Notes: generated by a model not told the origin, from the letters alone. A DNA stretch of 64,000 bases from an uncultured bacterium (GCA_963695095.1 CAVOFT010000001.1:3008001-3072000); one strand, 5' to 3'; counted from the stretch's first letter, positions 4,824-54,462 are shown. Translations and numbers: made by a program.

Positions 4824-5900
4824 ATGTCCGAGTTCGTGCCGAATCTCCCCGCCGCCGCGGTGGATGCTAGCCTGCGCGCGGCCGTCGCCGCCTTGCGCCG
4901 CGCCGAACAGAGCGCCGTGCTCTGGTTCGCCGAGCTGATGCGCCGGCGCCTCTATCGCGACCGCGGCTACTCCAGCATTCATGCCTACGCCGAGGCCGTG
5001 CTGGGCTTCGGGCAGGCGAAGACCTATCAGTTCATCCGGCTCGCCGAGTCGCTCGATGGCTTGCCGCAGCTGCGAGCCTCGGTCGAGGCCGGCGAGATGC
5101 CCTGGACCAAGGCCCGCAGCGTGGCGGCGGTCGCCACGCCGCGCTCCGAGGGCCAGTGGATCGCCCTCGCGAAGGCGAGCAGCGCTCGTCAGCTAGAAGC
5201 ACGGATCCGCGAGAGCCGCGGCGAAGCGCGGCGCGATCGCGGCCAGGGCGACTTGCTGGCGCCTGCCCCTGGGCCCATCCCCGCCCCCGCGCCGGTCCCC
5301 GCACCGGCGCCAAAGGTGCAGGTCAGCTTCACGCTCGAGCCCGAGCAGCACGCCCGCTGGCTGGCAATCGTCGAGCGCCTGCGCAAGCAGGGGCACGCCG
5401 AGGCGAAGGAGGAACTGCTGCTGGCTGCCTTCGCGGCACTGGCCGAGGCGGAGTGTACACGTGTACAAAGCGAGGCACCGTATCAGGTCGTGATCTACCG
5501 CTGCGAGGAGTGTGGCGCCGCTCGCCTGCCCGACGGGCGCCCCCTGGCGCCGGCGGTGGCCGCGCAGGCGGCCTGCGACTGCCGAACGCAGCGGGAAGGC
5601 GAGCCAAACCGGGCGTCGATCCCGCCGTCTCTTCGACGACAGGTGCTTGCGCGCGACGGGCACCGCTGTCAAGCGCCAGGCTGCCGGTCCACGCGCTTCC
5701 TGGAGGTGCACCACCGCGAGCCGCGCCGGCGTGGCGGCCGCAACAGCGCGGCGAACCTGATCACCCTCTGCGCGGCCTGCCACCGACTGCTGCACGAACG
5801 CGGCGTGGGACTTGCCGCCGCGCTGCCGGCCGCCGCGCTGCCGGCCCCCGCCCTGCCGGCCGCCGCCCTGCCGGTGGCGGGCTCGCCGAACACGGGCTGA
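4824..5900 (+). CDS. HNH endonuclease with DUF222-like N-terminal domain
   Basis: Intact 358-aa ORF. N-terminal RRLYRDRGYSSIHAYAEAVLG...GEMPWTKAR; C-terminal RRQVLARDGHRCQAPGC...LEVHH...GGRNSAANLITLCAACH. Confidence 0.9.
   Translation: MSEFVPNLPAAAVDASLRAAVAALRRAEQSAVLWFAELMRRRLYRDRGYSSIHAYAEAVLGFGQAKTYQFIRLAESLDGLPQLRASVEAGEMPWTKARSVAAVATPRSEGQWIALAKASSARQLEARIRESRGEARRDRGQGDLLAPAPGPIPAPAPVPAPAPKVQVSFTLEPEQHARWLAIVERLRKQGHAEAKEELLLAAFAALAEAECTRVQSEAPYQVVIYRCEECGAARLPDGRPLAPAVAAQAACDCRTQREGEPNRASIPPSLRRQVLARDGHRCQAPGCRSTRFLEVHHREPRRRGGRNSAANLITLCAACHRLLHERGVGLAAALPAAALPAPALPAAALPVAGSPNTG
5454..5467. repeat. 14-bp perfect palindrome TGTACACGTGTACA, copy 1 (inside HNH gene)
   Basis: Read directly; identical copies at 14086-14099 and 54417-54430. 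Confidence 0.97.
5814..5873 (+). repeat. 15-bp tandem repeat x4 encoding the A(A/P)ALP tail of the HNH protein
   Basis: GCCGCCGCGCTGCCG x2, GCCCCCGCCCTGCCG, GCCGCCGCCCTGCCG. Confidence 0.9.
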
Positions 5901-6163
5901 TTGGCGCTGACAGCGAGACCCCCGGCATCGCGACAGGGCATCTGGCCGGAGCCAGAGGGCCGCAGATGCCATGCCTCCTGACGGATCAAGGTTGGGCGGC
6001 TCCGCCTTCCCTGAAAGGGCATGCGCTGCCTCGCGCTTCCCTGGCCTGCCGGCGCGCTCGCCCCGCCGGCGGCGCAAACCCTGTAACAGCCTTGTTGCAA
6101 ATCAGTTAAGGCGCCGCCTCCCGCGGATCGGGGCTAAGGCCGCGCCGTCCCCCTGCCGATAAA

Positions 6164-8719
6164 GTGGAGGAACGCGAATCCCGCTTGAGGAGATCGGCCT
6201 CCATGCCCCCTCGCAGCCAGTCTGTCGCGAGCCCGCGCGACGTCTCCGCCCAGCCCCTGCCCAGCTTCCGCTGGCGGGACAGCCTGCTCGTGCGGATCCC
6301 GCTGGTCTTCGCCATGCTGCTGACCGGGCTGGCGCTCGCCAGCGCCCTCGTGATCGGCAGCGTGGGCCGGCGCCTGCTCGAGGAGCAGGCCCGCGTGCAG
6401 TCGAAGCTGGCGGGCAGCGCCCTGGTCGCCGACTACCAGACCCGCCTGGTCGCCGCGCGCGGGCGGGCCGTCTCGCTGGCCGAACTCGGCGAGCAGCTGC
6501 CCCAGGACGCCGAACTCCACCGGCGCCTGCTGCCGCGCCTGCTCGATCCCGAGGACAAGGAAGAGACGATCGCTGGCGGCGGCCTCTGGCCGGAGCCCCG
6601 CGCCTTCGATCCCGCGCGCGAGCGGCGCAGCTTCTGCTGGCGGCGCGACACGGACGGCAAGCTCCTCTACGTGGACGACTACAACGACCCGGCGGGTACC
6701 GGCTACCTGCGCGCGCCCTGGTACGAGCCCGCCGCCCTGCGCCACATCGCCGCGCCGACCTGGTCCTATGCCGCCAGCGCGCTGCCCGGGCTGCAGCCCA
6801 CGCTCTCCTGCTCCGTGCCGATGCGGCGGGACGGCAAGTTCTACGGCGTGGCCACGGTCGAGATCTGGCTGGCCGGCATGGACTGGCTGCTCGACGACGC
6901 CGCCGCCACGCTCGAGGGCTACGCCCTCGTCCTCGATCGCGAGGGGCGCTTCATCACCTGGCCGCGGGGCAGCGCCGTGCGCGAGCTCAGCGCCAGGCTG
7001 CAGGCCGGCGCCTCGCCACATGCCAGCCTCGAGTCCCTGGCCCTGAAGGACGCCGGCTTCGGGCCCTACGCCGACGCCATCGCCCAGCTCGCCGCCGAGC
7101 CCCCGCCCAGCCCCGGCCAGCGCAATCCCCGCTGCCTGCACCTCTCGGTGGCCAAGGATCCGCTGCTGGGCAGCGCCGCCGTGGCGGCCATCCTCCAGGT
7201 GCCGGAGACGGACTGGTGGATCGTCGCCGTCACGCCGCGCAGCGCTGCGATCGCCTCGGCGGAGTTCTTCGGCCGCATGCTGACCCTGTCCACCATCGGT
7301 CTCATCCTGCTCTGCCTCCTGATCGCCTATCTCCTCCTGCGCTGGATCCTGATCAGCCCGCTCAGCGGCCTCACGCGCCAGCTCCAGGCCTCCTTCGCCA
7401 GTCAGGAGGTGGGCTGCCTCGAGCTGGCCAGCTCCGACGGCGGCGAGCTGGGCACCCTGGTCTACTGGTTCAACCAGCGCAGCCGCCAGCTCGAGAAGCT
7501 GCTGCGCCGCCGCGACGAGGACCAGGTGGCCCTGCTCTCCGCCAAGCGCGCGGCCGAGACCGCCACCCAGGCCAAGAGCGAGTTCCTGGCGGCGATGAGC
7601 CACGAGGTGCGCACGCCGCTGAACAGCATCATCGGCCTGACCGGCCTGCTCGCCGAGTCGCCGCTCGATCGGGAGCAACAGGACTACATCGAGACCGTGC
7701 GCGCCTCGGCGACGACGATGCTCACGCTCATCAACGACATCCTCGACTTCTCCAAGATCGAGGCGGGGCGGCTGGAACTGGAGGCCATCCCCTTCCAGCC
7801 GGCCGCCCTCTGCGCGGAGGTCATCGAGCTGCTCGGCTTCCGCGCCCGCGAGAAGAAGATCTCCGTGCATCTGCGCAAGAGCACGGGCAGCGACACCTGC
7901 TTCCTGGGCGATCCCGGGCGCCTGCGGCAGATCATCCTCAACCTGGTCGGCAACGCGATCAAGTTCACCGAAGCCGGCGAGGTGGAGATCCGCTGCCAGT
8001 CCACGCCGCTCGCGGGCGGCCAGGGCGAGCTGCGCTTCACGGTGCGCGACACGGGGCCGGGCATTCCTGCCGCCGCCCAGGCCGGCCTCTTCCAGGCCTT
8101 CGCGCAGGCCGAGCGCTCCACGACCCGCCGCTTCGGCGGCACCGGCCTCGGCCTGGCGATCAGCCGCCAGCTCGTCGAGCTGATGGGCGGCGAGATCGGC
8201 CTGGAGAGCAACGAGGGCCAGGGCGCCACCTTCTGGGTCGCGCTGCGCCTGCCCCGCTCGTCGAACCTGCCCCCTGCCGCGGCCCCTCGCGAAGCGGAAC
8301 CGGTGGGCGATCTGCGCCTGGACGCCCGCGTGCTCCTGGTCGAGGACAACCCGGTCAACCAGAAGGTGGCCCTGCTCCAGCTCGAACGCCTGGGCTGTCG
8401 CGCCGACCTCGCCACGAACGGCCTGGAGGCCATCGAGGCCTACAAGCGGGGCGAGTACGACGTCATCCTGATGGACTGCCAGATGCCCGTGATGGACGGC
8501 TTCGAGGCCACGCGCATGCTGCGCACCCTGGAGATGCCGGGCCGGCGGACGCCGATCATCGCGCTGACCGCCCACGCGATGAAGGGCGACCGCGACCGCT
8601 GCCTCGCCGCCGGCATGGACGACTACCTGGCCAAGCCCGTCGAGCGGGGCGCCCTGGCGCGCACGCTGAAGCGCTGGGCCCAGGAGCGCCGCGAGCAGGA
8701 ACTCCTGCGGCGCCACTAG
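6164..8719 (+). CDS. Hybrid sensor histidine kinase (Cache-like periplasmic sensor, HAMP, HisKA, HATPase, REC)
   Basis: Two TMs, [44 protein letters not shown]...[11 protein letters not shown]...YLAKP. True start may be slightly downstream. Confidence 0.93.
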
Positions 8720-8775
8720 CGGTCTCATTGCCGCCACGAGCGGTCCCATTGCCGCCGCGCCCGCGGCGCGCTAGC

Positions 8776-9849
8776 ATGCCCGGCATGATCCCCGACCGCC
8801 ACCGCCTCGCGCCCGATGCCGCGCTCGCCCTGCTGGCCCGCGCCGAGACCGTCCACCTGGCCGCCGTCGATGCGGGGGGCGCGCCGCTGCTGCGCGCCCT
8901 GCACGTCGTCCTCGTCGAGGGCGAGCTCGTCTGGCACGGCTCGCTGGCCGGCGAGAAGGGCTTCCTGCCGGGCCATCCGGTGCAGGTGGCCGCGCACGAG
9001 CGCGTGGCCGAGATCCCCAGCCACTTCATCGATCCCGAGCGCGCCTGCCCGGCCACGACCTACTACGAGAGCGTGCTGGCCACGGGCGTGCCGGTGGAGG
9101 TCGCCGATCCAGACGAGAAGGCCAGGCTGCTGCAGGCGCTGATGGCGAAGTACCAGCCCGAGGGCGGACATCGGCCGCTCGGCGGCGCCCAGAACGCGGA
9201 CTTCTACCGCGCCGCCGTGGCCGGCACGCGCGTGCTGCGCATGCCGCTGGCCACGCTGAGCGGCAAGAGCAAGCTCGGCCAGAACCGCAGCCCGGAGCAG
9301 CGGCGGCGCATCCTCGAGCGGCTCTGGGAACGGGGCCGCGCGGAGGACCTGGCGGCCATCGACCGCATCCTCGCCGCCAATGCGGACACGCCCTTGCCCG
9401 CCGTTCTCGCGGCTCCCGCCGGCGCGCGGCTGCGCTGTGCGCCGGGCGCCCGGCACGCGCAGGCCGCCGCCGCCCTGCTCGCGGGCCGCTACTGGACCGA
9501 GGGCGAGTCGCCCGCGGCCCTGGCCGCGGCGCATGCGTCATCCCCCGGCTGGCTCGGGGCCGAGGACGCCGCCAGCGGCGAGCTGATCGGCACCGGCCGC
9601 GTGCTGGGCGACGGCCTGCGCCTGGCCTGGATCCTGGACCTCGTCGTGCGCGAGGACTGGCGGGGGCGGGGCCTGGGTAGCGCCCTGCTACGCCTGCTCC
9701 TGGGCCATCCCCTGGCCCGCGGCGCCCGCGCCATCCGCCTGCGCACCCGCGACGCGGAGGCCTTCTACCGCCCCTTCGGTTTCCTTCCCCTGGCCACCGA
9801 CGCCTTCCCCACCCTCCAGCGGCTGCGTCCGCTGGGGAGCGTGGAATAG
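8776..9849 (+). CDS. Pyridoxamine 5'-phosphate oxidase/NimA-like flavin-binding protein fused to a GNAT acetyltransferase
   Basis: HGSLAGEK, ACPATTYYESV, SGKSKLGQNR, followed by AWILDLVVREDWRGRGLG...FYRPFGF. Confidence 0.8.
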   Translation: MPGMIPDRHRLAPDAALALLARAETVHLAAVDAGGAPLLRALHVVLVEGELVWHGSLAGEKGFLPGHPVQVAAHERVAEIPSHFIDPERACPATTYYESVLATGVPVEVADPDEKARLLQALMAKYQPEGGHRPLGGAQNADFYRAAVAGTRVLRMPLATLSGKSKLGQNRSPEQRRRILERLWERGRAEDLAAIDRILAANADTPLPAVLAAPAGARLRCAPGARHAQAAAALLAGRYWTEGESPAALAAAHASSPGWLGAEDAASGELIGTGRVLGDGLRLAWILDLVVREDWRGRGLGSALLRLLLGHPLARGARAIRLRTRDAEAFYRPFGFLPLATDAFPTLQRLRPLGSVE

Positions 9850-9979
9850 GGATAAACAGGACTTTTTACACTTTACCACCTTTTGTACTGCTCCTTACGG
9901 TCGCTTGGGCTAGACTTGTAGACACTCGGGCTTCGCAAGCAAGGTCCTCCCCGTCCCCGCCACTGTTAAGGAGCCAATC

Positions 9980-10651
9980 ATGCGTATCCCTGCCCCCCCC
10001 GCCGGCCTGGTCCTGCTGACCATTGCCGGACTTGCGTTCGCCCCGCCCGCGCGGGCGGCCGGCGACGAACCCGATCGCGGTCGGCCCGCCGAGGCGCCCG
10101 CGCAGAGCGCCGAGGCGATCCAGGCCCCCGCCGCCCCGCTGCTTCCCGCGGACGGATTGCCCTATGGCCCGCTGGAGCTGCTCACCCTGAACCCCGTCGA
10201 CCCGCTCGACCGCGGTTCGGACCTCACCGACGCCGGCCTGGACGCAGCGCCCGCCATGCCCTCCGCCCTCGAGGAGGCGAAGCTGGCCATGGCCCGCGCG
10301 GCCGTCGAGGCCTCGCGCGCGGCCGGCACCCTCTACGTGATCGGCCCGCAGCCGGCGGCGCTCGCGCCCCCGGAGATGCAGCGCGCGGCCAAGCTGGACC
10401 GCCTGCGCAGCCAGCCTCCGGTGCCCATGCCCGACCTGGCCGGCCCCGCCGGCGTCGGCGGCGGTCTGGAGCCCTTGCAGCTCATCGGCCCCAGCGCGCC
10501 CAGCGCCGAGGAACTGGCCAAGCTCGAGACGAGCTACCCGGCCACGTCCAACCCGGCGCCGCCGGCGGACCCGGCGGCTCGCGCTGAAACCGCAGCGCCG
10601 GCCCCCGCCGCCGATCCCCAGCAGGCCCAGGACGCGGAGGTGCAGCGATGA
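9980..10651 (+). CDS. Secreted Pro/Ala-rich hypothetical protein
   Basis: RBS AAGGAG, signal peptide ending ARA, ATGA overlap with the next gene. Confidence 0.75.
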   Translation: MRIPAPPAGLVLLTIAGLAFAPPARAAGDEPDRGRPAEAPAQSAEAIQAPAAPLLPADGLPYGPLELLTLNPVDPLDRGSDLTDAGLDAAPAMPSALEEAKLAMARAAVEASRAAGTLYVIGPQPAALAPPEMQRAAKLDRLRSQPPVPMPDLAGPAGVGGGLEPLQLIGPSAPSAEELAKLETSYPATSNPAPPADPAARAETAAPAPAADPQQAQDAEVQR

Positions 10652-13600
10652 AGACGCTCCGCCACGCCGCCCTGCTCGCCGCCCTCGCGCTCGGCATGGG
10701 AACCGCCAGCACTCTGGCCGATCCGCTGGCTCCCAGCCGCGGCGAGTCCAGCCCGGCCGACATCGCGGCCGCTCGCCTGGAAGCCGCTCAGGCCCCGTTG
10801 GGGCAGGATCCGAGCGTCTGGGAGGACGTCGAGGGCATGGCCGAAGAGGCCAACCTGCGCGACGGCCTCAGCGGCCGCGCCAACGACGACAACGACACCG
10901 CGCACTACGGCCGCGGCAGCACGCTCGTCATCCACATCTTCATCAGCCATGACGGCGGCACCTGGACGGGCACGGACATGGACGCCGCCAACGCCAAGGC
11001 GATCGTCGCCAAGGACTTCTTCATCGACAACGCGCCCTACGGCGCCAACCTCAGCTTCGACAACCAGGGCGGCGGCACCTACTGGTTCTATCACGCCGAC
11101 CTACCCTACACGATCGGTGACAGCGGCACCAACGACACCGTTGTCAACGACGCGCTCATCGCCCTCGGCTTCGGCGATGCCGACGGCGACGGCACCCGCG
11201 TGGACGACCTCACCTTCTACTTGCAGAACTGGGATGGCGGCTACGACAACGTGATCGCCTCCTTCCAGGTGCACGTGACCGGCCGCGCCTGGGCCAGCTA
11301 CGGCACCGCGCAGATCCGTCTCTATCTCGACAGCAACGGCAATGTCTGGGCCCACGAGATGGGCCACAGCTTCGGCGCCTGCGACGAGTACGTCGAGGGC
11401 GGCCAGTGCAACGGCGGCATCAACTGCGGCCTCTGCCAGAGCTGGTACCTCGACTATGACGTCAACAACGGCAACTGCCAGCTGGCGAGCTGCCCCATCG
11501 ACGTCAGCTGCGTGATGATCAACAACACCTTCACCAACATCTGCGACTACACGCGCCAGCACTGGGCCTGGTGGGACGGCAACGGCGACAGCCAGCTCGA
11601 CATCGTCGAGCGGCGCGTCACCGGCAGCACCTTCACCAATATCTGGGAGCTCTGGCACAACGGCTGGTTCTACTGGAACAACGTCGACGAGGGGATGGCC
11701 GTCCACCAGCGCTGGAACACCTGGTCGGTGGTCGGCCTGCGCAGTCCGGCGACGGCCGACTACGACCCCTATCTGTACCTGGACAACAACCACAACAACT
11801 ACGTGGCCAACTCCTACACCGGCTTCCCGGTGGACTTCATCGTCGGCGACTACAACCACAACCGTGCCGGCAACGAGCACGTCGAGGTGCGCCGCTACTC
11901 GGGCGACACGGCCGGCTACAACCTCACCTTCGAGAGCGGCACGAGCATGCTCTATCCCGACGGCATCTCGCGCTCGGTGAGCTGGAGCGACTACAACGTC
12001 GTGCGCGTCTGGGATGTGCCGCTCTTCGCGGGCGAGGAGCTGACCTTCTACGCCTGGAATCTGAGCGCGGGCATGGACGTGGGCCTCGCGCTCTACAAGA
12101 GCAACGGCGCCACCTACTTCGCCGGCCGCACCAGCGCGGTGGCCAGCGCCGACGCCTACGGGGCCGGCTCGGGCGAGTCCTTCACCTTCCTGGTGCCGGC
12201 GGACGACGTCTACGGCCTCGTCGCCTGGAGCAACAGCACGGTGAACGGCAGCTTCGAGATCCAGATCGGCCCGACGCCCTACACGCTGGCGGAGGAGACG
12301 CCCTTCCTCTCGGCGCTCGACCTGCGCCTGTTCAACTACGACCCCAACGCCTACTACTGGTCGGTGGTCGGCACGCGTCCCTACGCCGGCACGGACGTGA
12401 CGGGCGCGCTCTATGCGGACCAGAACTACCTCAGCCTGCTCGAGACCTCGAGCGAGTACATTCCCGGCTCGGCGGAGCTCGTGGCCGTGGACTACAACTA
12501 CGCCCCCCTCAACCGCGACCACTGGCGCGTGAACCGCACCAGCGGCACGGGGAACCACACCACGGAGTGGGAGCACGACCCGGAGATCCTGTCGGGCTAT
12601 ACCGGCAGCCTCACCTGGGCCCATGACCACGTGGCGAAGATCTGGGACTTCTACGGCAACGCCGGCCAGAACTACTTCTTCCGCGAGTACCAGAGCGACC
12701 CCGATCTCGACACGGCGCTCTACCTGTACAGCAACAACGGCGGCGACTACTACAAGCGGCGCGCCAGCTTCATCGGGCTGTCGAACTACCACCCGCCGGC
12801 AGACGGCGGCGAGTGGTTCAACGCCACGGCGCCGGCGACGGGCTGGCTCGGCTTCGTCACCGTCACCGAGGACGAGTATGACGGCGGCTACGCGATCATG
12901 GCCGGCCCCGACATCGCCCTCAGCGAAGACGTGGCGGACACCCGCTACGACGAGATCGTCTTCGCCAGCAACACCGTGCCCTGGGCCTGGTGGACGGTCT
13001 TCGGCGTGCGGCCGGCCTCGGGCAGCGAGGCCAGCGTCTGGCTCTACGGCGACGACGCCTACACGATCAGCACGCTGGCCGTGAGCGACCAGTCCGGCGG
13101 CGGCGTGGACTTCGTCGTCGGCGACTACAACCACATCGGCAGCGGCGGGACGGTCTATCCGCGCTTCTATCGCCGGGCCGGCTTCGGCGAGATGGACATG
13201 GAGTTCGAAAGCGGCGGCGAGACGCTGAGCTTCGCCGCGGGCGGCGCGAACTTCTACGATCTCGATTGGCCGGCCGGGGACGTCGTCGAGATCTGGGACC
13301 TCTGGCTCTACGACGGCGACGAGCTCCGGCTCAGGGTGGAGGATCTCACGCGCGGCTCGCTCGACTTCGGCGTGGCCCTCTTCGCCTCGAACGGCGCGGC
13401 CTACTACGCGAGCGAGGAAGGCGCCGCCGTCAGCGCCGACAACGAGGGCGTGGGCGGCCCGGAGTTCATCGACTTCACGGCGGATCACGCCGACTGGTAC
13501 GGCGTCGTCGTCTACAACCAGAACGACGAGGGCGGCGCCTACCGGATCACCGTGCAGGATCGGACGACCGTGGCCGTGGGCGACCTGCCGCTGCCGCAGC

Positions 13601-13875
13601 GCTTCGCCCTGCAGCCGGCCTCGGCCAACCCCTTCGCCGGCGACGTGCTCCTGCGCTACAGCCTGCCCCGCGAGAGCGCGGCGGCCATCGATATCTTCGA
13701 CGTCAACGGCCGCCGCGTGCGCAGGCTGCTGGACGGCTCCGCGCCGGCCGGCAATCACCTGCTCACCTGGGACGGCAAGAGCGACGCCGGCGAGATCCTG
13801 CCCGGCGGCGTCTACCTGGCCCGCCTGCGGGCCGGCGGCGAGTCGCACAGCGCCAAGCTGGTGCGCGTGCGCTAG
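10648..13875 (+). CDS. Secreted zinc metalloprotease with internal repeats and C-terminal FlgD-Ig/T9SS-like domain
   Basis: Signal peptide; AHEMGHSFGACDEY zincin motif; C-terminal ANPF...IFDVNGRRVRRL...TWDGKSDAG...GVYLARL. Confidence 0.85.
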   Translation: MKTLRHAALLAALALGMGTASTLADPLAPSRGESSPADIAAARLEAAQAPLGQDPSVWEDVEGMAEEANLRDGLSGRANDDNDTAHYGRGSTLVIHIFISHDGGTWTGTDMDAANAKAIVAKDFFIDNAPYGANLSFDNQGGGTYWFYHADLPYTIGDSGTNDTVVNDALIALGFGDADGDGTRVDDLTFYLQNWDGGYDNVIASFQVHVTGRAWASYGTAQIRLYLDSNGNVWAHEMGHSFGACDEYVEGGQCNGGINCGLCQSWYLDYDVNNGNCQLASCPIDVSCVMINNTFTNICDYTRQHWAWWDGNGDSQLDIVERRVTGSTFTNIWELWHNGWFYWNNVDEGMAVHQRWNTWSVVGLRSPATADYDPYLYLDNNHNNYVANSYTGFPVDFIVGDYNHNRAGNEHVEVRRYSGDTAGYNLTFESGTSMLYPDGISRSVSWSDYNVVRVWDVPLFAGEELTFYAWNLSAGMDVGLALYKSNGATYFAGRTSAVASADAYGAGSGESFTFLVPADDVYGLVAWSNSTVNGSFEIQIGPTPYTLAEETPFLSALDLRLFNYDPNAYYWSVVGTRPYAGTDVTGALYADQNYLSLLETSSEYIPGSAELVAVDYNYAPLNRDHWRVNRTSGTGNHTTEWEHDPEILSGYTGSLTWAHDHVAKIWDFYGNAGQNYFFREYQSDPDLDTALYLYSNNGGDYYKRRASFIGLSNYHPPADGGEWFNATAPATGWLGFVTVTEDEYDGGYAIMAGPDIALSEDVADTRYDEIVFASNTVPWAWWTVFGVRPASGSEASVWLYGDDAYTISTLAVSDQSGGGVDFVVGDYNHIGSGGTVYPRFYRRAGFGEMDMEFESGGETLSFAAGGANFYDLDWPAGDVVEIWDLWLYDGDELRLRVEDLTRGSLDFGVALFASNGAAYYASEEGAAVSADNEGVGGPEFIDFTADHADWYGVVVYNQNDEGGAYRITVQDRTTVAVGDLPLPQRFALQPASANPFAGDVLLRYSLPRESAAAIDIFDVNGRRVRRLLDGSAPAGNHLLTWDGKSDAGEILPGGVYLARLRAGGESHSAKLVRVR

Positions 13876-13901
13876 GGCCGCGCACGATCCTGTTCACCGA
13901 A

Positions 13902-13933
13902 GGGGCCGCCGGCGTTTGCCGGCGGCCCCCTTT
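13902..13933 (+). terminator. Intrinsic terminator
   Basis: GGGGCCGCCGGC-GTTT-GCCGGCGGCCCC followed by CTTT. Confidence 0.75.
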
Positions 13934-13978
13934 GCGTCGATGGCCGTGGCGTGAGGTCGACTTGCCTTCGTCCGTCGG

Positions 13979-14148
13979 GAGGCATGCGCATCGCAGGGAA
14001 CGGCGCCACCTGGGCGGAGGGTCGACGGATCGAGGCGAGGGCAAGGCTGCTGTTAGCGCCCTTTGCCGCCCTGGCCGCGGCAGAGTGTACACGTGTACAA
14101 AATGAACCGCCCTACCAGGTAGTGATCCACCGCTACGAGGAACGCGGC
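13979..14148 (+). pseudogene. Intergenic fragment of an HNH-family gene centred on palindrome copy 2 (14086-14099)
   Basis: Translates EARARLLLAPFAALAAAECTRVQNEPPYQVVIHRYEERG versus HNH EAKEELLLAAFAALAEAECTRVQSEAPYQVVIYRCEECG. Confidence 0.9.

Positions 14149-14770: not shown

Positions 14771-14771
<1 letters not shown>
14340..14771 (+). CDS. SUF system Rrf2-family Fe-S regulator
   Basis: [25 protein letters not shown], Cys motif; first gene of the suf operon. Confidence 0.92.
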
Positions 14772-46992: not shown

Positions 46993-47105
46993 CGCCGGGT
47001 TGCCGGGCGGCGGCGTTCCCCCTCGGCGCTGCCAGCCCCCCAACCCCTGTCCTTGACAGCCGGCAGCCTGCCATGCCCACCTGCGGCAACTCAGGAGGTG
47101 CCGCC

Positions 47106-47549: not shown

Positions 47550-47662
47550 CACTTGTTGCCCGCCAGGCTTGCGCGGGAGAGCGCGCTGCGGGATAATGAA
47601 GCTGTGAGTGCTGCCGGCCCCGCGCGAGCGCTGCGCCGAATAACCTGAACAGGGAGGGCGAG

Positions 47663-48185: not shown

Positions 48186-48224
48186 GCGGTCAGCGGCCGG
48201 CGGGGCCAGATCCGGCAGCGACGC

Positions 48225-48614
48225 TCAGTCGCCCTCGCCGCGACCGTGACCATGACCATGGAGGCCGCAGGTGGCATCGGGGTCCACTTCGACGAGGGCT
48301 TCGCGCTCCAGATCGGCAAGCGTGGCGGCGACCGTGGGCTGGCCCGCAAGGTAGATCCGGAGGCCCGCGGCCTGCAGCTTGCCGAGCGCTCCTGCTGCCG
48401 ATACCGCCAACGGCGATCGCGTCCATGGCCTCACCGGCCAGGACGGCCAGCGGCTGGCACATCCCGTGCGCATGGTGCTGGTCTGTTGATTGGCGATGCT
48501 GCGGCAGTCGCCGCTCTCGGTGTCGACGACGAGAAAGAGCGGCGCTGAGCCGAAGTGCGCGCAGACGGGGCTCTTCAGGCCGGCGTCCTTGGTGACGGGA
48601 ATGCAGAGTTTCAT
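48225..48614 (-). CDS. NifB/NifX-family (FeMo-cofactor biosynthesis-like) protein
   Basis: MKLCIPV...[18 protein letters not shown], His-rich tail. Confidence 0.85.
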
Positions 48615-48629
48615 GGATCCTCTCCTTGT

Positions 48630-48813
48630 TCGGGTGCCTCCCAGCCCGCCCGGCAGCGGCCGCCGCGATGCGGCTGAAGGTAGAACGCGACACGCCCATG
48701 CGTGCGGCGGCCTCCTCTTGATAGAGCCCCTCCAGATCGGCCAGGCGGAGGGCTTCCAGTTCGTCGAGGGTCATGGCGATGGACTCCAGCGCGCGCAGCG
48801 GGCCGAGCTGCAC
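48630..48813 (-). pseudogene. Truncated DUF134 HTH gene
   Basis: [36 protein letters not shown]; the usual N- and C-terminal parts are not visible. Confidence 0.7.
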
Positions 48814-48851
48814 CCAGGCGATCTCGCCCCGCTCGCCACTACAGGCTTGCC

Positions 48852-51169
48852 TCAGTCCGCGAGGCCCATTCTAGCCAGGAAGGCCGCCCAGCGCGGATCG
48901 GCGTGCAGCAACGCAAAGGAAGGCTCGCGCTTGACCTCGCTGAGACCCGCGTCGCGCTGGGCATAGGAGCGCTCAAGCCAGGCGAAGGCCGGCTCGACTT
49001 CCCCGCGCAGAGCGAAGGCAGCCGCGATCTGGTAGGCACCGTCATCCGGATAGTCCGCGACGAGCGTGGCGAGCGCACGGTCAGATTCTTCCTGGCGACC
49101 GAGGACATGATAGGCGACGGCGAGGGACATGAGTCGCGCCCACTCCTCGGGCTCGCGCTCGGCTTCAGCCAGCGCCTCCTCGTTCCGACCCTGGCCAAGG
49201 AGAACCGAACCCAGCATCATCCGCGTCCCGACTCGCTGCGGCGAGATCTCCAGTACCCGCCGATAGGCGGCCTCCGCCTCCGCCAGCATCCCGGCTGCCC
49301 GATAGCTCATGCCGAGCCCTGCGTAACCGCCGGCGCTCAGGGGATCCTGCTCAACAGCCCGCTGCCCCAACACGATGGCCTCATCCACGCGGCCCAGATC
49401 GCGCGCCAGCGTGGCGGCTCCGCGCAGGACATCGGCGCGGCCGGGGGCGATCGCGAGGGCCCGGCGATGCGAGGCATCGGCGGCCTGCCAGTCCCAGTCG
49501 TAGGATGTCTGGAGCGTGGCCAAGGCCAGGTGACCCTCGATCAACTCGGGCTCGAGCGCCAGCGCCCGCTCGGCCGCCTCCCGCGCAAGCCCGTGGCCCT
49601 TCGCCAGGGGAGTCCAGCTATAGCCCGCCTCGTGCCAGTGGGCGCGCGAGAGACAGGCCCAGGCCAGCGCGTGGCCCGGATCGATGGCAAGCGCCTGGCG
49701 CAGGTACTCGATGCCCTTGGCGATGTCCTCGCGCCCGAGGCGATCGACGAGGAAGCGTCCCTGCAGGAAGAGCCGGTGGGCCTCGCTGCTCTCGCCGCGG
49801 CCCCTGGCCGCCGCGGCAACCTCGGCCCGCGCCTCGCCGCTCGCCTTCGAGTGGGCGGCCTCGCCGAGCAGGGTCGTGCGCAGCTCCTTCACCACCGACT
49901 GCGCGATGTCGTCCTGCACCGCGAAGATGTCCTCCAGCGTGCGGTCGTAGGTCTCCGACCAGAGCTGGTAGCCGTCGGCCACCTTCACGAGCTGCACGGC
50001 GATGCGCACGCGGTTGCCCACCTTGCGCACGCTGCCCTCGAGAACGCTGGCCACGTTGAGCGGCATGCCCTACGTCCGAGACCGTTGCATCCTTGCCCTT
50101 GAAGCTGAAGGCCGAGGATCGCGCCGCCACGCGCAGGCCGCTGATCTTTGCCAGCGTGCCCAGCAGCTCGTCGGCGAGGCCGTCGGCGAAGTACTCGTCT
50201 TCCTCGTCGCGGCTGCGGTTGACGAAGGGCAGCACGGCGATCGAAGGGACTTTCTGCGCAGCCGCTGCGGCGGCGCCCGAGTCGAGACGTGGCGCCGGCG
50301 GGCGCGACTCCATGCTGCTGCGCAGCAGCTTCCAGCTCGTTGCGCACGTCCTTCGCGGTCTGGAACCGTCGCTCGGGATCCTTCACCAGGCAACGGCCGA
50401 TGATGCGCTCGAGGTCGGCGGGCAGCTCCGCGCGCAGGCTCGCGAGCGGCGCCGGCGGGTCGCGCAGGATCGCCGAGCTGACATCGGCAGCGTCGCGCCG
50501 GCGAACGGGCGCCGGCCCGTTGCGAGTTCGTAGAGCATGATGCCCAGCGCGAAGAGGTCCGTGCGCGCATCGACCGCCTCGCCGCGGAGCTGCTCGGGCG
50601 CCATGTACGGGCACGGTGCCCAGCACCTGGCCCGGCGACGGAGATGCGGTTCGACGGCGGCGAGCGTGCGCGTCTCGGCCAGGGCCGCATTCACCCGGCC
50701 AGCTTGGCGAGGCCGAAGTCGAGCACCTTCACGCGGCCCTCGCGCGTGAGCATGACGTTGGCGGGCTTGAGGTCGCGGTGGACGACGCCCTTCTCGTGCG
50801 CGGCGGCGAGGGCGTCGGCCAGGCGGGATCGCCAGCTCGAGCAGGCGGGCCAGCGGCAGGCCGCCGGGGCGACCAGCTGTCGAGCGCCCTGCCCGTCGAC
50901 CAGCTCCATGGTCAGGAAGTGGCGTCCCTCGGCCTCCTCGATCGAGTGGAGCGTGACGATGTTGGGGTGGTTGAGCGCGGCGACCGCGCGGGCCTCGCGC
51001 TCGAAGCGGGCCAGGCGCTCGGCGCGCGGCCACGCCGCGGGCAGCACCTTGAGCGCGACCTCGCGGCCGAGCCGGCGTCGCGGGCGCGGTAGACCTCGCC
51101 CATGCCGCCCGCGCCGAGGGGCAGCGAGGATCTCGTAGCCGCCGGGCGCGTGCCGGGTGCAAGGAACAT
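48852..51169 (-). CDS. Ser/Thr protein kinase with TolB-like and TPR domains, frameshifted
   Basis: [50 protein letters not shown] repeats. Confidence 0.92.
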
Positions 51170-51262
51170 GGGGTTTCAGGTTCCGGCCGCGGAGCCCCGC
51201 TGTCAAAGCGCGCTACCCGCCCTGCCGCGGCCGGCGATCCTGCGTTGCCGGCCAGATCCGCC

Positions 51263-51907
51263 TCATTGCCGCCAGCGGACGATTATGTCCTGCTCGGGCA
51301 GGAAATCCGTGGCTTCGTAGGTCCAGACCGTCTCCTCGCCCTCGCGCCGTGTGAACGGGAAACTGAACTCGAGCGGTTCGGCGCCGGCGGGCAAGCGGAT
51401 CTCGAAGGCGGCTCGCGCAGCGGGCTGCCCCAGGCCTTGGTGGTCGTCACGATGTAGCGCGCGTATTCGGTGCGGGAGCTGCTGGCGATAGATCGCCTCG
51501 ACGACGAGCGTATCGCTCGGGCAAGGCGGCAGCCACCAGCGCACGACCCACTGGCCCGGCACTGCCTCCCAGCGCGCCGGCAGCGCGGGGCCGCTGGCGC
51601 CGGCCCGCACCGCGAGCGAGACGAAGCGCCAGCCGCCGAGCAGCGAGTCGCGCGGGAAGGGATAGAAGAGCGGGAAGCGCCTCGCTCTCCCCCCCGCAAG
51701 CAGCAGGTAGCTGCCGCGCACCTCGAGGCTGTCGCCGACGATGCTCAGGCAGATGCGCTCGGAGTCGAAGACGAGCGGGCAGGCTGCGCGCGAAGGCGTC
51801 GCGCGGCCGGGTGGCACCCGGCGCTTCCCCGTCGCGCAGGCCAGCGCTTGCGCGAGCAGGCCGAGCGTCAAGGCGGCGGCAAGCGCGGCAGCACGCGCAA
51901 CCGTCAC
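51263..51907 (-). CDS. Secreted hypothetical protein, frameshifted
   Basis: Signal-like N-terminus; FDSERI..., [26 protein letters not shown]. Confidence 0.6.
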
Positions 51908-52901
51908 CCCAGCTTGCGCGACTCGAGCCGCCCATCAGGGTAGAGCGTCTTGATCGCGCCCCAGCTCGGCGACGCCGTCGGCGTCGTCCTCGCCGACGAT
52001 GAAGGTGACCGGCAGGCAGCGCCCCATAGGGCTGGCCGCGCGCACCCAGGCTGGCGTCGGTCGCCGACGGCGAGGCCGCTCGCGTCGGCGGTGACAGCCA
52101 GCCGGTGATGGTTGAAGCCGATGGTAGTCGTCGAGGTGCTCGAGCCAGTCCGCCAGCGGCGTCACCGCACCCAGCGAGCACAGATGCCCGCCCAGATCTC
52201 CGTCTCCGCCCACGGCCTGCCGCCGGGTGCGGCGCTGAGCTCAGCACTGGATGGGCGAAGTCGATCACGCAGTTGCGGTCCGTAGCCGCAGGGGATGTGC
52301 GTGTACTCGCAAGGCAAGCCGACCTCGGCGCCGCAGCCCTCGGCATAGCTCGGGAAGGGATTCCCGCAGTCGAGCGTGACGGTGCTTGCCCCAGGTGCTG
52401 GCGAAGCCGAAGCGCCCCGGCTCCGCTCACGTCGAAGACGAAGCGGGCGATCAGGAACACCTCGTGGAAGCTGATGGGCAGGTCGGGGGATCGAGTGACC
52501 CAGTAGTTCAGTCGCAGTGGAAGCGCGTAGGGCGGGAGGAGATTCCAGATCGCCCCCCAGACGCCGCACACGGTCGCCGTCGACGAACTGCCAAGCCCTC
52601 CGGCCAGACCAGATCGCAGTCGACCGCCCGGATGTCCATCGGCTGGCCCGCCTGCTGCCAGTGGATCGGCTGAAGAAGAGCAGGAATTCCCAGGTGCCCA
52701 GCGCCGATGCGTCGTTGACGACTTGCTCGCAGTCGACGATGTCCGTCTCGCAGGGCCGGCGAACTCCTGCACGTGGCATGAGCAGCGCCGACTCGGGGGG
52801 GACGTTGGCCGCGCTCGGGCAGGACCGAGGCCAGGAGAAAGGTGGCAACGCCGCCCAGCCCAGGCCAGCCGGAGCCACAAGCCGCGCGCGAAACCCTGCA
52901 T
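51904..52901 (-). CDS. Secreted Cys-rich hypothetical protein with SWGAIKTLY C-terminal motif, frameshifted
   Basis: GGAGG RBS, signal-like N-terminus, C-terminal SWGAIKTLY encoded at 51940-51966. Confidence 0.55.
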
Positions 52902-52997
52902 GCCCCCGCCTCCTGCCCGCACACCGCAAAGGCTGACTCGATGCGGTCCCAGTGTAGCACCGCGTCGGGACGCCGTCGAGGTGCCGGCCGGCGACGC

Positions 52998-53025
52998 TTG
53001 ACGCCGGCGCCGCGGCCGCTATCCT
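52998..53025 (+). promoter_or_regulatory. Putative sigma70 promoter for the rsgA leader
   Basis: TTGACG-N16-TATCCT. Confidence 0.5.
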
Positions 53026-53259
53026 TGAGGCTTCACCCGCGGGCTATCCCGGAAAGGGCTGATGTCGACCGTTGCTCTCCATGAGGGACAGGCCTAGGGC
53101 GAAGCGGCAAGGCCACGCGGCCAAAGGGCCGTGCGCCGCTGCTTCGTCTCTCGCCTGCTCCCCTGCCAGCGCAGACCGCGCCGGGCGATACGCGCACCGG
53201 CGGCCGGGTTCTGCGCCGTTCGTGCACACCCCAACCGCACGCAAATGGAGAGCACCGCA

Positions 53260-54343
53260 ATGAGCGATCTGAAGGCCCTGGGTTTCGGCCCCTATTTCCA
53301 AGCACAATTCGAGGCGTGGGCCGAGCCCGCGCTGATTCCCGCCCGCGTCGCCGCCGAGCACCACGGCGCCTATGAAGTGTGGACGGCGAGCGACCGCCGG
53401 CCAGGCCAAGCTCGCCGGGCGCCTGCGCCGCGAGCTTGCGGAGAGCGAAGCGCCCACGGCCGGCGACTGGGTCGCCCTGCGCGAGGCGCCGGGCCCGGAC
53501 AGCATCGCATTGATCGAGCGCGTCTTCGCGCGGCGCACGGTCTTCACCCGCGGCGCCGCGGGGCGCGAAGGCGGGTGCAGGTGGTGGCGGCCAATGTCGA
53601 TCTCGTCTACGTGGTGAGCAGCATGGACGCCGACTTCAACCTGCACCGCATCCAGCGCTACCTGGCCCGCATCCACGCCGGCGGCGCCACGCCCGGCGTC
53701 ATCTTGAACAAGGCGGATCTCTGCGCGGACGTGGCCGACCGTGTGCTCGACGTGGAGCTGGCCTGCCCCGGCGTGCCCGTCCACGCGGTGAGCGCGCTGC
53801 GCGGCGAGGGCGTCGCGGCCATCCGCGCGGCGGTCGGCCCGGGGATGACCGCGGCCTTCCTCGGCTCCTCGGGGACGGGGAAGTCCACCCTGATCAATGC
53901 CCTCCTCGGCGAGGCGCGATGGCCACCGGCGCCGTGCGCGCCTACGACGGCAAGCGGCCGCCACACCACCAGCCACCGGCAGCTCCTGCGCCTGCCCGGC
54001 GGCGGGCTGCTGCTCGACACGCCCGGCATGCGCGAGCTGCAGCTCGCTCGACGAGCGACGGGCTGGACGCGGTCTTCCCGGAGATCGCCGCGCTGGCCGC
54101 CGCAGTGCCGCTTCCCGGACTGCCGGCACGAGGGCGAGCCGGGCTGCGCCGTGCAGGCGGCGATGGCGGCGGGCGCGATCGGCGCCGAGGCGCTCGCGCA
54201 CTGGCGCAAGCTCGAGAAGGAGGCCCACGCCTACGCGCTGCGGCAGGACGTGCGCCTGCGGCGCGAGGCAGGAACGCGCCTGGGGACGCCGCTACGCGCA
54301 GGCGATCAAGGAGCTGAAGCCGAAGCGCCGCGAAGCGCGCTAG
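53260..54343 (+). CDS. rsgA: Ribosome small subunit-dependent GTPase A, frameshifted
   Basis: PTAGDWV, AANVD, LNKADL, GSSGTGKSTLIN, GRHTT, DTPGMRE, CRFPDCRHEGEPGCAV. Confidence 0.93.
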
Positions 54344-54357
54344 CCTTGGGTCCTTGA

Positions 54358-54462
54358 GAGGCATGCGCACAAACGGCGCCTCCGCGCGCCGGCTTGCGGC
54401 CCTGGCCGAGGCGGAGTGTACACGTGTACAAAACAAGCCGCCCTGCCGGGTCGTGATCTGCC
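54358..54462 (+). pseudogene. Intergenic fragment of an HNH-family gene centred on palindrome copy 3 (54417-54430)
   Basis: Translates LAALAEAECTRVQNKPPCRVVIC; CTGGCCGAGGCGGAGTGTACACGTGTACAAA is identical to the HNH gene. Confidence 0.88.

Follow-up and report, generated by a model that had tools for sequence, protein, structure and literature searches.

The 64,000-nucleotide stretch of DNA analysed here (the window) raises the question of why one 14-bp perfect palindrome, TGTACACGTGTACA, should occur both within an HNH nuclease gene and in two decayed intergenic pieces of such a gene. Its three exact copies lie at 5454-5467, 14086-14099 and 54417-54430, all in one orientation on the + strand and each behind a + strand gene, as the preliminary description of this DNA had reported. 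No further match with up to two mismatches was found in the window, and none of 100 dinucleotide shuffles of the window contained a match. The reading that we consider probable is that the palindrome is a DNA-level cis site in a transposon-like element, and most likely the binding site of a ParB/Noc-type HTH in the protein that its own gene encodes.

Occurrence and conservation of the palindrome

Three copies in 64 kb had been taken to imply many more genome-wide, and 33 perfect copies were counted in the 3.64-Mb genome (G000) against about 0.0016 expected from base composition, an enrichment of approximately 20,000-fold. Mismatched copies are few, since only two with one mismatch and two with two mismatches were detected in the whole genome, where 2.3 two-mismatch sites are expected by chance. 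The genome of a sister species (G001) has 28 perfect copies, one with a single mismatch and three with two. The exact sequence was found in 7 of 41 related genomes, including G000, and only in genera with HNH genes carrying it. Within G000, 25 of the 33 sites lie outside crude gene calls, mostly just 3' of genes, and these dispersed sites are absent around the inferred replication terminus. A 27-bp unit containing the palindrome is tandemly duplicated at four loci, and at several solitary sites the symmetry runs a few bases past the 14 bp.

In the first copy the palindrome is read in frame as TGT, ACA, CGT, GTA and CA-, in the peptide context E-C-T-R-V-Q. In long ORFs of this genome the share among synonymous codons is 8.2% for TGT (Cys), 2.4% for ACA (Thr), 3.7% for CGT (Arg), 1.3% for GTA (Val) and 6.0% for CAA (Gln), so that these A/T-ending codons are indeed unusual here. 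Because mismatched copies are so few, because the five rare codons are kept although the gene copies differ by dS of 0.09-0.47, and because the encoded residues (208-220) are predicted to be disordered (pLDDT ~38), selection at the palindrome appears to act on the DNA and not on the peptide. The invariance of the palindrome against diverged flanks, noted earlier for the window, holds both between copies and between species, its conservation being far above that of the flanks in either comparison.

The element, its insertion and its remnants

The gene in the window is part of a full-length element of 1.33 kb (4662-5995, + strand), which consists of a CTAG, a left terminal repeat, a promoter-like motif, the HNH gene, a right terminal repeat and a degenerate CTAG (TTGG). 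These bounds are the limits of homology among six to seven full copies, and the left and right ends of six copies align as ~40-bp inverted repeats, represented in the window at 4662-4705 on the + strand (nhmmer match C1:3012661-3012705, E 1.5e-8) and at 5957-5995 on the - strand (C1:3013996-3013957, E 4e-7). A single ORF lies between the ends, a + strand CDS of 358 aa (4824-5900) with the palindrome at 5454-5467, centred after the first base of an Arg codon. The putative promoter (4749-4777, + strand), proposed from its consensus, combines TTGACT (4749-4754) and TATAAT (4772-4777) with a 17-nt spacer, is located 46 nt 5' of the ATG and is conserved in all aligned copies of a seven-copy alignment.

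The genome carries seven close full-length copies (one of them frameshifted), two divergent paralogues and about 12 remnants. The full copies differ by at most 14% at the DNA level (22% for the frameshifted c2975), all keep the palindrome, and their ORFs are under purifying selection, with dN/dS of 0.15-0.29 between copies. The HNH family was found, as multiple copies, in 34 of the 41 related genomes. Terminal repeats were seen only in the subfamily of the window element; three copies of another subfamily have only the promoter-like motif and gene in common and are without such repeats.

In a congener (G002) we identified an empty site with one CTAG at the locus where copy c1108 of G000 lies between two CTAGs, and in G001 an element copy occupies the same CTAG in the opposite orientation. 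As read from this one locus, where the matches to the two flanks share 6 bp, the element appears to target CTAG and to duplicate it. The terminal CTAG also supplies the stop codon of an upstream ORF in two cases in the window, at 4662-4665 (stop codon 4663-4665 of ORF 3910-4665) and at 54340-54343.

The element resembles IS630- and IS5-type insertion sequences in its size of ~1.3 kb, in having terminal inverted repeats and in a CTAG target that is duplicated whole or in its central TA. CTAG targeting and terminal repeats are typical of DDE transposases, IS630 inserting at CTAG with duplication of TA and IS5 duplicating CTAG-like tetramers, and we know of no HNH transposase. The element could accordingly be mobilized in trans by a conventional DDE transposase of the IS630 or IS5 type, encoded elsewhere or lost, in which case the HTH/HNH protein would be a passenger, such as a selfish nuclease or one for defence, with the palindrome serving merely as its operator; the lack of terminal repeats in other subfamilies would fit as well. 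We regard this as unlikely, though worth keeping in view, given that the element, unlike IS630 and IS5, is without a DDE transposase and that DDE_3 (PF13358) and DDE_Tnp_1 (PF01609), the two DDE families searched, had no match in the genome (93.5% complete). In the element protein, Pfam and NCBIfam gave HNH as the only domain, with no DDE, HUH or Ser/Tyr recombinase. Also against a passenger role are the purifying selection on the ORFs, the multicopy state of the family in most related genomes, including a subfamily without such ends, and the restriction of the terminal repeat to HNH elements or their remnants, at the ends of which all 14 nhmmer matches with E < 0.05 lie.

The two intergenic sites had been described as pieces of the same part of an HNH gene, and blastn with the element bears this out within slightly wider limits. 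A degenerate left terminal repeat (13959-14009) survives in remnant 2 (13959-14141, + strand) and is followed by the palindrome region (14031-14141, C1:3022031-3022141, 79% identity), with ~700 nt deleted between them and everything past the start of the zinc ribbon gone. Remnant 3 (54339-54486, + strand) joins a left terminal repeat (54339-54383) to the palindrome region (54396-54486, C1:3062396-3062486, 80% identity); its CTAG (54340-54343) holds the stop codon of an rsgA-like ORF, and it fills the entire spacer up to a convergent pectate-lyase-like ORF ending at 54485. By structure both are internal-deletion derivatives that keep the left end and the palindrome. The remnants are not a random sample of the gene, since 12 of the fragments detected by BLAST include the palindrome, against one clear (C1:318639-318822) and three marginal fragments without it. 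About 13 further palindromes are solitary, with no recognisable HNH flank.

Orthologous loci in relatives indicate how such sites arise and persist. The locus of remnant 2 is empty in G002, where the flanks are 25 bp apart compared with 307 bp in G000, at a divergence too high for the junction to be read. The orthologue of remnant 3 in G001, also after rsgA, is trimmed further, to 2 nt before an intact palindrome. Shrinkage of remnants to the site, one of two origins suggested earlier, is thereby supported; the other, that they are non-autonomous copies, is not borne out, given that blastn and nhmmer searches of the genome detected no remnant with both terminal repeats. Among the 21 G001 sites fetched outside copies taken as full-length, 17 map to 14 palindromes of G000 (one mapping being ambiguous), and at these 14 remnant or solitary sites the palindrome is perfect in both species, whereas the flanks of ±80 nt are identical at 1621 of 2330 positions (70%). 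The solitary sites thus seem to remain under strong constraint. A cis role within the element leaves the perfection of these gene-less sites unexplained.

It could be argued that selection on the palindrome is limited to active copies and that remnants keep it simply by their youth; as the full copies have diverged and still all have the site, part of the divergence of remnant flanks may predate the deletion. We consider this extremely improbable, in view of the 14 sites common to the sister species despite a 30% flank difference, the remnant that was trimmed after the species split with its site untouched, and the near absence of one-mismatch copies from both G000 and G001.

The encoded protein and the palindromes of related subfamilies

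The 358-aa protein comprises a ParB/Noc-like HTH (aa 23-137), a predicted dimer interface (aa 161-211), the disordered linker encoded at the palindrome (aa 208-220), a zinc ribbon (aa ~224-252) and an HNH nuclease (aa 268-333). The Pfam HNH domain (PF01844) matched with E 3.7e-10 and 40.2 bits against a cut-off of 21.4, and the catalytic and zinc-binding residues (H296, H297, N311, H320 and H324; C282, C287, C316 and C319) are invariant in 20 of 20 sequences.

The fold match to ParB/Noc begins at residue 23 and is followed by a helical hairpin, the zinc ribbon and HNH. Residues 23-137 matched the Noc/ParB DNA-binding domain with VIA Z of 9.2-7.5 and rmsd of 2.4-3.0 Å over ~100 residues, the top eight rows being all Noc/ParB. 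The best match (Z 9.2, rmsd 2.5 Å, 100-103 residues) spans the whole 105-residue chain 6y93_A, in a small helical domain for which a Z of ~9 can reflect an arrangement common among helical folds, and Foldseek E-values for the match were only 0.06-0.7. Across the family, 9 of 20 N-terminal domains matched Pfam HTH_ParB (best E 3.3e-4) and 9 of 20 matched DUF222 (PF02720; best E 7.5e-7). For the N-terminus of the window protein, HTH_ParB was not listed by Pfam and DUF222 reached 14.9 bits (E 0.017) against a cut-off of 24.4; whole-genome scans gave no match to DUF222 at E <= 0.01 and a match of HTH_ParB to paralogue p1079 (E 0.0033, below cut-off). The recognition-helix region aligned with the genome's own ParB in hhalign (E 0.05); ParB was absent from the matches of a profile search of PDB sequences. 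An N-terminal HTH of the ParB fold is likely to be present on the predicted structure, the similarity at sequence level being weak.

A symmetric homodimer was predicted with a score of 0.72, compared with 0.00 for the best of three controls. Among proteins of solved structure, those that reached the mark were 20 of 30 with two copies of one chain and 1 of 23 with a single chain. At least 69% of contacts recur between runs, and the pLDDT of the partner is 69 or higher.

The linker holds the gene's longest perfect palindrome (14-28 bp) in 14 of the 20 full-length homologues, and a fifteenth has a decayed 10-bp palindrome; as a control, a palindrome of at least 14 bp was present at only 4 of 48 loci with unrelated small HNH genes. 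The linker palindromes are centred after the first base of an Arg codon, the one conserved linker residue. Homologous genes thus carry a palindrome at the same position, a point raised in the preliminary description, but a different one in each subfamily (TGTACACGTGTACA, TGCACCCGGGTGCA, TCCACCCGGGTGGA, ACTTCCCCCGGGGGAAGT, ACTTCCGCCGGCGGAAGT and others), with cores of CACGTG, CCCGGG or GCCGGC that resemble parS and NBS. Residues flanking the centre covary as symmetry requires (Cys..Gln/His versus Ser..Asp), and the dyad symmetry is maintained via compensatory paired changes between subfamilies. The recognition helix differs between palindrome types, a difference that could also come from shared ancestry. 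Each of the two divergent paralogues in G000 has a palindrome of its own in the linker, repeated upstream of the gene. At least three other palindrome types are enriched in the genome, two of which recur in the linker of another HNH paralogue.

These data bear on two other readings. Recognition could be of shape, with the palindrome acting as an RNA stem-loop that terminates transcription, stabilises 3' ends like REP elements or pauses translation, or as a single-stranded DNA hairpin or cruciform, and not as a duplex dyad. The position of most sites directly 3' of genes, the symmetry extended by a few bases at several solitary sites and the 27-bp tandem duplications, such as hairpin slippage would give, are in its favour, yet shape alone would not demand one fixed sequence, and all 33 copies have the same one, with no drift via paired changes in this genome. 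In addition, the central four bases, the would-be loop, are self-complementary in every subfamily (in a search that scored perfect palindromes only), and the stem is short and A+T-rich for a genome of 70% G+C, all of which makes this reading quite improbable. A chromosomal regulator with no relation to the element, such as an SOS-type repressor, might have its operator here, with the HNH gene merely containing one such site; an intergenic, dyad-symmetric 14-mer conserved between species would suit this, but the reading is more improbable still: the sites are 3' of genes and not before them, the additional enriched types include two matching paralogue linkers, and the exact site is confined to genera whose HNH genes have it.

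The genome-wide enrichment, the bias of the remnants, the conservation and the homologue palindromes together support the earlier proposal of a multicopy mobile HNH family with an internal cis site selected at the DNA level, and each refuting outcome that it had named was checked and went in its favour. The protein, with its HTH, dimerisation hairpin, linker, zinc ribbon and HNH, is the sole product of a 1.33-kb transposon-like element that inserts at CTAG, often one made by a stop codon, and duplicates it. The protein would bind the dyad inside its own gene as a dimer, as at a parS or NBS site, and so tether the nuclease to the element for autoregulation, mobility or both; the palindrome of each subfamily changes together with its gene. 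On decay of copies by internal deletion, the palindrome is left as a solitary site under strong constraint. What the data show are the anatomy and insertion of the element, the enrichment, conservation and compensatory variation of the site, the likeness of fold and the predicted dimer, whereas the binding of the protein, its effect and the enzyme that moves the element are inferred here.

We also put forward, tentatively, the possibility of a new class of bacterial transposon, in which the ParB-type HTH-HNH (DUF222-HNH) protein would be the mobility enzyme and the internal parS-like palindrome a required cis site, decay seeding dozens of perfect, terminus-avoiding sites then used by the family or the host, for instance in chromosome organisation. 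If so, networks of ParB/Noc-type sites can arise from a selfish element. Were the HNH protein to move the element, its transposase chemistry would be one not so far described in bacteria; were it not to do so, this would still be an unusual coding sequence constrained by the probable binding site of its own product.

Comparison with known systems

The REP13E12 or '13E12 repeat' family of Mycobacterium tuberculosis consists of DUF222-HNH repeated genes (PF02720 + PF01844). The genes studied here are likewise dispersed, multicopy and ~1.3 kb long, each coding for a helical domain of unknown function at the N-terminus and an HNH nuclease at the C-terminus, although the window protein remains below the DUF222 cut-off (14.9 versus 24.4 bits). 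To our knowledge, neither terminal repeats nor a CTAG target, an in-frame cognate palindrome or a ParB-like assignment has been described for DUF222 genes, and the DUF222-HNH family, very large and multicopy, has no assigned function or described mode of spread. Our search found no published accounts of in-frame palindromes or ParB-like domains in DUF222-HNH genes, and the available text of one source gives DUF222 only as an unknown-function domain fused to HNH (PMC3592412). The present data offer as handles a likely ParB/Noc-type DNA-binding domain for these genes, ends of the element that are now defined, together with its CTAG target and an empty site, and a probable site readable from the linker of each gene, and hence many natural protein-site pairs for the evolution of DNA-binding specificity.

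NBS sites, as tens of dispersed palindromes, avoid the terminus as the sites described here do around its inferred position; that solitary palindromes should be conserved between species and missing from this region is an unexpected afterlife for a mobile element. ParB and Noc bind TGTTTCACGTGAAACA and TATTTCCCGGGAAATA as two-fold symmetric dimers, and these are, in the available part of that account, 14-16-bp perfect palindromes with CACGTG or CCCGGG centres, as here (PMC7383237). The DNA-binding fold is predicted to be the same. The element protein differs from ParB and Noc in that Pfam matched neither the N-terminal CTPase (ParBc) domain nor the C-terminal dimerisation domain of ParB, a zinc ribbon and HNH nuclease being present instead, and its gene differs in being multicopy and mobile, with the site inside it; a separate canonical ParB is encoded at C1:149801-150091. 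Fusions of the ParB-CTPase fold to HNH are noted in the accessible part of a preprint (bioRxiv 10.1101/2025.10.10.680097) and involve a ParB domain other than the HTH.

Free-standing HNH homing endonuclease genes are also comparable, in that this gene too may be a selfish one for an HNH nuclease whose DNA site is long and specific. The palindrome, however, is intact inside the gene and not split by insertion, the insertion point being a CTAG ~790 nt away bounded by inverted repeats, so that cutting the site would not copy the gene into it.

Similarities to REP/REPIN-RAYT systems and BIME mosaics include the shortness of the palindromes, their extragenic position, mostly after genes, and their number (tens of copies), as well as the tie of each type to one cognate nuclease gene, which has the same palindrome within or beside it. 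The differences are an HTH-HNH protein in place of an HUH/Y1 (IS200/IS605-like) transposase, a master copy of the palindrome within coding sequence, and the origin of at least some dispersed copies from decay of whole elements and not from copying of the repeat. Palindromes of different types lie next to one another, as they do in the REP systems, with examples at C1:2808070, 388666, 772921/772948 and 233772/233796.

Conservation of the palindrome within and between genomes

In the window, which corresponds to C1:3008001-3072000 of the source genome, the palindrome TGTACACGTGTACA occurs at 5454-5467, 14086-14099 and 54417-54430; no additional match was found there when up to two mismatches were allowed, and 100 dinucleotide-preserving shuffles of the window yielded zero matches. 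The first copy lies in frame within a 358-aa ORF (4824-5900) containing a Pfam HNH domain (E 3.7e-10), and the other two are intergenic, in DNA that, when translated in frame, remains similar to the corresponding stretch of the protein, so that positions and likeness agree with the preliminary description of one copy in an HNH gene and two in decayed gene pieces. The rarity of the A/T-ending codons that encode it also held, TGT, ACA, CGT, GTA and CAA making up 8.2%, 2.4%, 3.7%, 1.3% and 6.0% of their synonymous sets over the long ORFs of the source genome (3.64 Mb, 70.5% G+C). A single 14-bp palindrome in a G+C-rich gene is not rare, given that 21 of 100 codon shuffles of the window gene reach one, and therefore the argument rests on position, recurrence and cross-species conservation.

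As regards recurrence, the source genome contains 33 exact copies of TGTACACGTGTACA against ~0.0016 expected from base composition, which is the enrichment anticipated from the three window copies and places it second among all perfect 14-bp palindromes of this genome. About 14 copies are found in non-HNH contexts beside ordinary housekeeping genes, 12 of them intergenic. CTAG is present within 100 nt of 13 of the 25 copies outside full elements, compared with 10% of random positions, a pattern that would be expected from footprints of insertions at CTAG. One solitary copy, also kept in the sister species, is located 13 nt past the stop of a 309-aa ORF (C1:3524698-3525627) with a different nuclease motif, HNH_2-like by eye.

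The palindrome had been proposed to be more conserved than its flanks, and in an alignment of 19 copies identity indeed peaks at GAG, the palindrome and the following A, dropping on either side. The source genome has 33 perfect copies, two with one mismatch and two with two mismatches (2.3 expected by chance), and the sister species has 28, one and three, respectively. Of 21 sister-species sites retrieved outside copies taken as full-length, 17 could be placed through their flanks at 14 palindromes of the source genome, with one placement ambiguous, and four have no counterpart; nine of the 14 are solitary sites without a recognisable HNH flank. At these 14 shared loci identity over the 80 nt on each side is 70% (1621 of 2330 columns of the alignment) and the palindrome is perfect in both genomes in every case, in pairs selected for presence of the site in both; the scarcity of one-mismatch copies in the two genomes is the unbiased counterpart of this perfection.

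A tandem 27-bp (nine-codon) duplication of the palindrome unit was detected at four loci of the source genome (C1: 431722/431749, 860255/860282, 1429685/1429712 and 2975257/2975284), at two of which one unit is mutated and the other perfect. The duplication is also seen on contigs C180, C325 and C329 of the sister species, and one of the duplicated units may have one or two mismatches with the other still perfect.

A CTAG-bounded element and its remnants

Searches with tblastn and blastn identified in the source genome seven close full-length copies of the HNH gene, of which one is frameshifted, together with some 12 fragments and two divergent paralogues at 45% and 57% identity. When the full copies were aligned, homology extended from ~160 nt 5' of the ATG to ~95 nt past the stop codon, and the ends proved to be inverted repeats of ~40 bp, starting and finishing with CTAG. 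By these limits the window element spans 4662-5995 on the plus strand, and the ORF upstream takes its stop codon from the first CTAG (4662-4665). In every copy TTGACT and TATAAT, separated by 17 nt, lie between the left repeat and the ATG, and the ORFs of the copies are under purifying selection, with dN/dS of 0.15-0.29 at dS of 0.11-0.47, pairs involving the copy c859 being left out. The terminal repeats were recovered by an HMM from a hand-curated alignment, which gave 14 sites at E < 0.05, all at ends of HNH elements or remnants, and four weak matches elsewhere (E 0.89-4.2); in searches for the same repeats blastn-short missed most, single-sequence nhmmer iterations did not grow and counting ungapped matches picked up mostly G+C-rich noise.

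Insertion at CTAG is shown at one locus, that of the copy c1108. In the congener this locus is uninterrupted, with a single CTAG holding the stop codons of two convergent genes, and in the source genome the element lies there between two CTAGs (C1:1108182-1109448). In the sister species this CTAG is also occupied, by a copy pointing the other way (G001:C36, L145 1410-2665) whose right repeat is no longer recognisable; the two orientations would be accounted for either by two separate insertions into one target or by inversion between the terminal repeats. Three further loci were rejected as empty-site tests: downstream of the window copy the congener is rearranged, the flanks of copy c904 have no counterpart in the sister species or the congener, and those of copy c3194 are not contiguous in either. 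CTAG is five-fold under-represented in the source genome (1,842 observed versus 9,772 expected from base composition). The Pfam families DDE_3 (IS630-like) and DDE_Tnp_1 (IS4/IS5-like) had no match in this genome, which is 93.5% complete, and tblastn of residues 1-260 against 72,556 plasmids found none. A homing-endonuclease model was rejected because the gene does not split the site.

In both window remnants, as delimited by BLAST and HMM, a left repeat is joined to the palindrome region. In remnant 3 (54339-54486) the junction lies 21 nt before the palindrome and the CTAG of the repeat holds the stop of an rsgA-like ORF; in remnant 2 (13959-14141) the repeat is degenerate and the junction lies 55 nt before the palindrome. 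Both are internal-deletion derivatives. Elsewhere in the genome, r796 retains the left end, promoter, 56 codons and palindrome region, r3412 the palindrome region and 3' end, and r745 the palindrome region and right repeat; BLAST and the repeat HMM found both terminal repeats together in none of the remnants of this genome. The piece kept around the palindrome reaches 2-96 nt ahead of it and 5-77 nt beyond it.

Remnants covering random parts of the gene are not what was found: the palindrome is present in 12 BLAST-detected fragments and missing from four others, of which one is clear (184 nt of the HNH domain) and three are marginal, and by our own arithmetic the chance that a random 120-nt piece of the 1.3-kb element holds a given 14-mer is ~8%. 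After rsgA the sister species has the same remnant with its left end cut to ten bases, joined 2 nt before the intact palindrome. Being trimmed further with the palindrome untouched, it supports the earlier suggestion that remnants shrink towards the site. The protease-rrf2 site, which holds remnant 2, measures 25 bp in the congener versus 307 bp in the source genome. A 1.3-kb insert at this site in the sister species was rejected as a full element, since it has no palindrome; it resembles an unrelated gene on the other strand. The ORF preceding remnant 2 (10648-13875) encodes a 1075-aa secreted protein with, by eye, a metalloprotease-like HExxH motif and a C-terminal sorting-type domain, and is closed by a clear G+C-rich hairpin terminator just before the remnant.

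Linker palindromes in other subfamilies

Of 41 related genomes, 34 have several copies of the HNH family, the named relatives being Krumholzibacteria and Eisenbacteria MAGs. Exact TGTACACGTGTACA occurs in seven of the 41, counting the source genome, all from two genera; in the second genus the genes are only 44-50% identical to the window protein and carry the same palindrome at the same place, often repeated directly after the gene. Homologous genes thus have a palindrome at the same position, as had been asked of them, but its sequence differs between subfamilies: one has the 28-bp TGAAGAGTGCACCCGGGTGCACTCTTCA in the linker, and others have GTCCACCCGGGTGGAC, GATTGTACCCGGGTACAATC, TGTGTACCCGGGTACACA, ACTTCCCCCGGGGGAAGT, ACTTCCGCCGGCGGAAGT, GGTCCCCCGGGGGACC, CGTCCCGCCGGCGGGACG or ATTCCCGCCGGCGGGAAT. 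Of 20 full-length genes, 14 have their longest perfect palindrome (14-28 bp) in the linker, between 0.58 and 0.66 of gene length, with its centre after base 1 of the codon for an Arg that is the only conserved linker residue; of the remaining six, one has a decayed 10-bp version and five differ. By comparison, a palindrome of at least 14 bp was found at only four of 48 loci with unrelated small HNH genes. In some subfamilies a dyad is found, additionally or instead, immediately before the start or immediately past the gene. An inverted-repeat search of six loci from other subfamilies revealed no terminal repeats, and a three-copy alignment concurs. A LexA-type box, considered for its likeness to GTAC-N4-GTAC, was dropped once the subfamily-specific palindromes emerged.

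The two divergent paralogues of the source genome follow the same linker rule. In paralogue p377 (C1:377216-378439) ACCCGCCCCCGGGGGCGGGT occurs twice within the gene, one of these copies being in the linker, and twice more upstream; the cognate dyad of p377, CGCCCCCGGGGGCG, absent from the window, is the most abundant 14-bp palindrome of the genome (94 copies, 56 of them inside genes on a crude gene map). Paralogue p1079 has CGACTTGTCACGTGACAAGTCG in the linker, repeated ~130 nt upstream, and there are seven copies of TTGTCACGTGACAA in the genome.

Two CGCCCCCGGGGGCG copies 28 nt apart (C1:464677 and 464705) were noted in a DEAD-box helicase gene, within the low-complexity region at its N-terminal end, where they encode TRPRGRVAA, the same peptide as the p377 linker. 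A further palindrome, TTGCCACGTGGCAA, has 11 copies (C1: 233796, 242315, 252009, 388666, 663295, 772921, 2808070, 2950930, 3080315, 3281982 and 3329193), and none of the HNH genes found in the source genome has it; it often lies 24-27 nt from another palindrome type, just past stop codons, in mosaic clusters that recall BIMEs. The congener, which is without the window subfamily, has only two exact copies of TGTACACGTGTACA and three of TGTTCACGTGAACA (C2:358925, C3:478922 and C6:166040), which differs from the window palindrome by one symmetric pair of changes and is nearer canonical parS.

A ParB-like candidate reader and the distribution of sites

An AlphaFold model of the window protein from a 20-row alignment (mean pLDDT 78.8) predicts a confident helical domain (residues 10-138), a helical hairpin (173-210), a disordered stretch (208-220) that is exactly the palindrome-encoded peptide, a zinc ribbon (~224-252) and the HNH domain (268-333), the HNH part resembling the McrA, Cap5 and IscB nucleases. 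In VIA, residues 23-137 superpose on the Noc and ParB DNA-binding domains with Z of 9.2-7.5 and rmsd of 2.4-3.0 A over ~100 residues; the top eight VIA rows are Noc or ParB only, and the alignment spans the entire 105-residue Noc domain solved on its site. Foldseek returned nothing at E <= 0.001, its own E-values being 0.06 and above, and a PDB sequence-profile search with the N-terminal domain gave two spurious rows only. Sequence support for the ParB link is weak: N-terminal domains were matched by HTH_ParB in nine of 20 proteins, DUF222 in nine and DUF1016_N in six, p1079 was matched by HTH_ParB below the cut-off in a genome scan, and hhalign aligned the recognition-helix region to the genome's own ParB at E 0.05.

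A homodimer prediction passed with a score of 0.72, the best of three controls scoring 0.00, at a mark reached by 20 of 30 proteins solved as one-chain pairs and one of 23 solved as single chains. The runs showed at least 69% contact agreement and partner pLDDT of at least 69, and the predicted interface comprises helix 10-47 and residues 161-211. According to PMC7383237, ParB and Noc are symmetric dimers on TGTTTCACGTGAAACA and TATTTCCCGGGAAATA, with site preference set by four interface residues. The family dyads are of the same style as these sites and share with them the cores CACGTG and CCCGGG, the third core type of the family being GCCGGC. In the open full-text literature we found no in-frame palindromes, terminal repeats or ParB-like domain for DUF222/HNH genes.

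Constraint on the site is sequence-specific and acts on a duplex dyad, for which the ParB-like domain encoded around it, a predicted dimer, is the simplest candidate reader. That several subfamilies have a dyad ahead of the start as well as one inside the gene suggests autoregulation, perhaps via looping, and the invariant HNH active site together with the transposon-like ends suggests that the protein may act in cutting and mobility. Neither autoregulation nor mobility alone explains the persistence of perfect solitary sites.

The sites are also unevenly distributed along the chromosome. There are no HNH genes in C1:1.57-2.73 Mb (32% of the chromosome), and the four palindrome types are absent from it except for six of the 94 CGCCCCCGGGGGCG copies. 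More precisely, the 1.17 Mb of C1:1565651-2735468 hold none of the 33+11+7 CACGTG-type palindromes (binomial P of 2e-6 for the 33 TGTACACGTGTACA sites and 1e-9 for the 94 CGCCCCCGGGGGCG copies, for a region defined after seeing the data), and the zone shows no shortage of CTAG targets (30.5%). Neither an origin nor a terminus was clear from cumulative GC skew in this genome, and both were placed from the strand bias of its genes, together with its canonical ParB gene and a parS-like sequence. The ParB gene (C1:149801-150091, HTH_ParB E 1.6e-34) and the parS-like CGTTTCACGTGAAACG at 151852, 1.8 kb away, likely mark the origin region near 0.15 Mb, and the gene-strand bias switches near 2.0 Mb; given these positions, the empty zone brackets the likely terminus.
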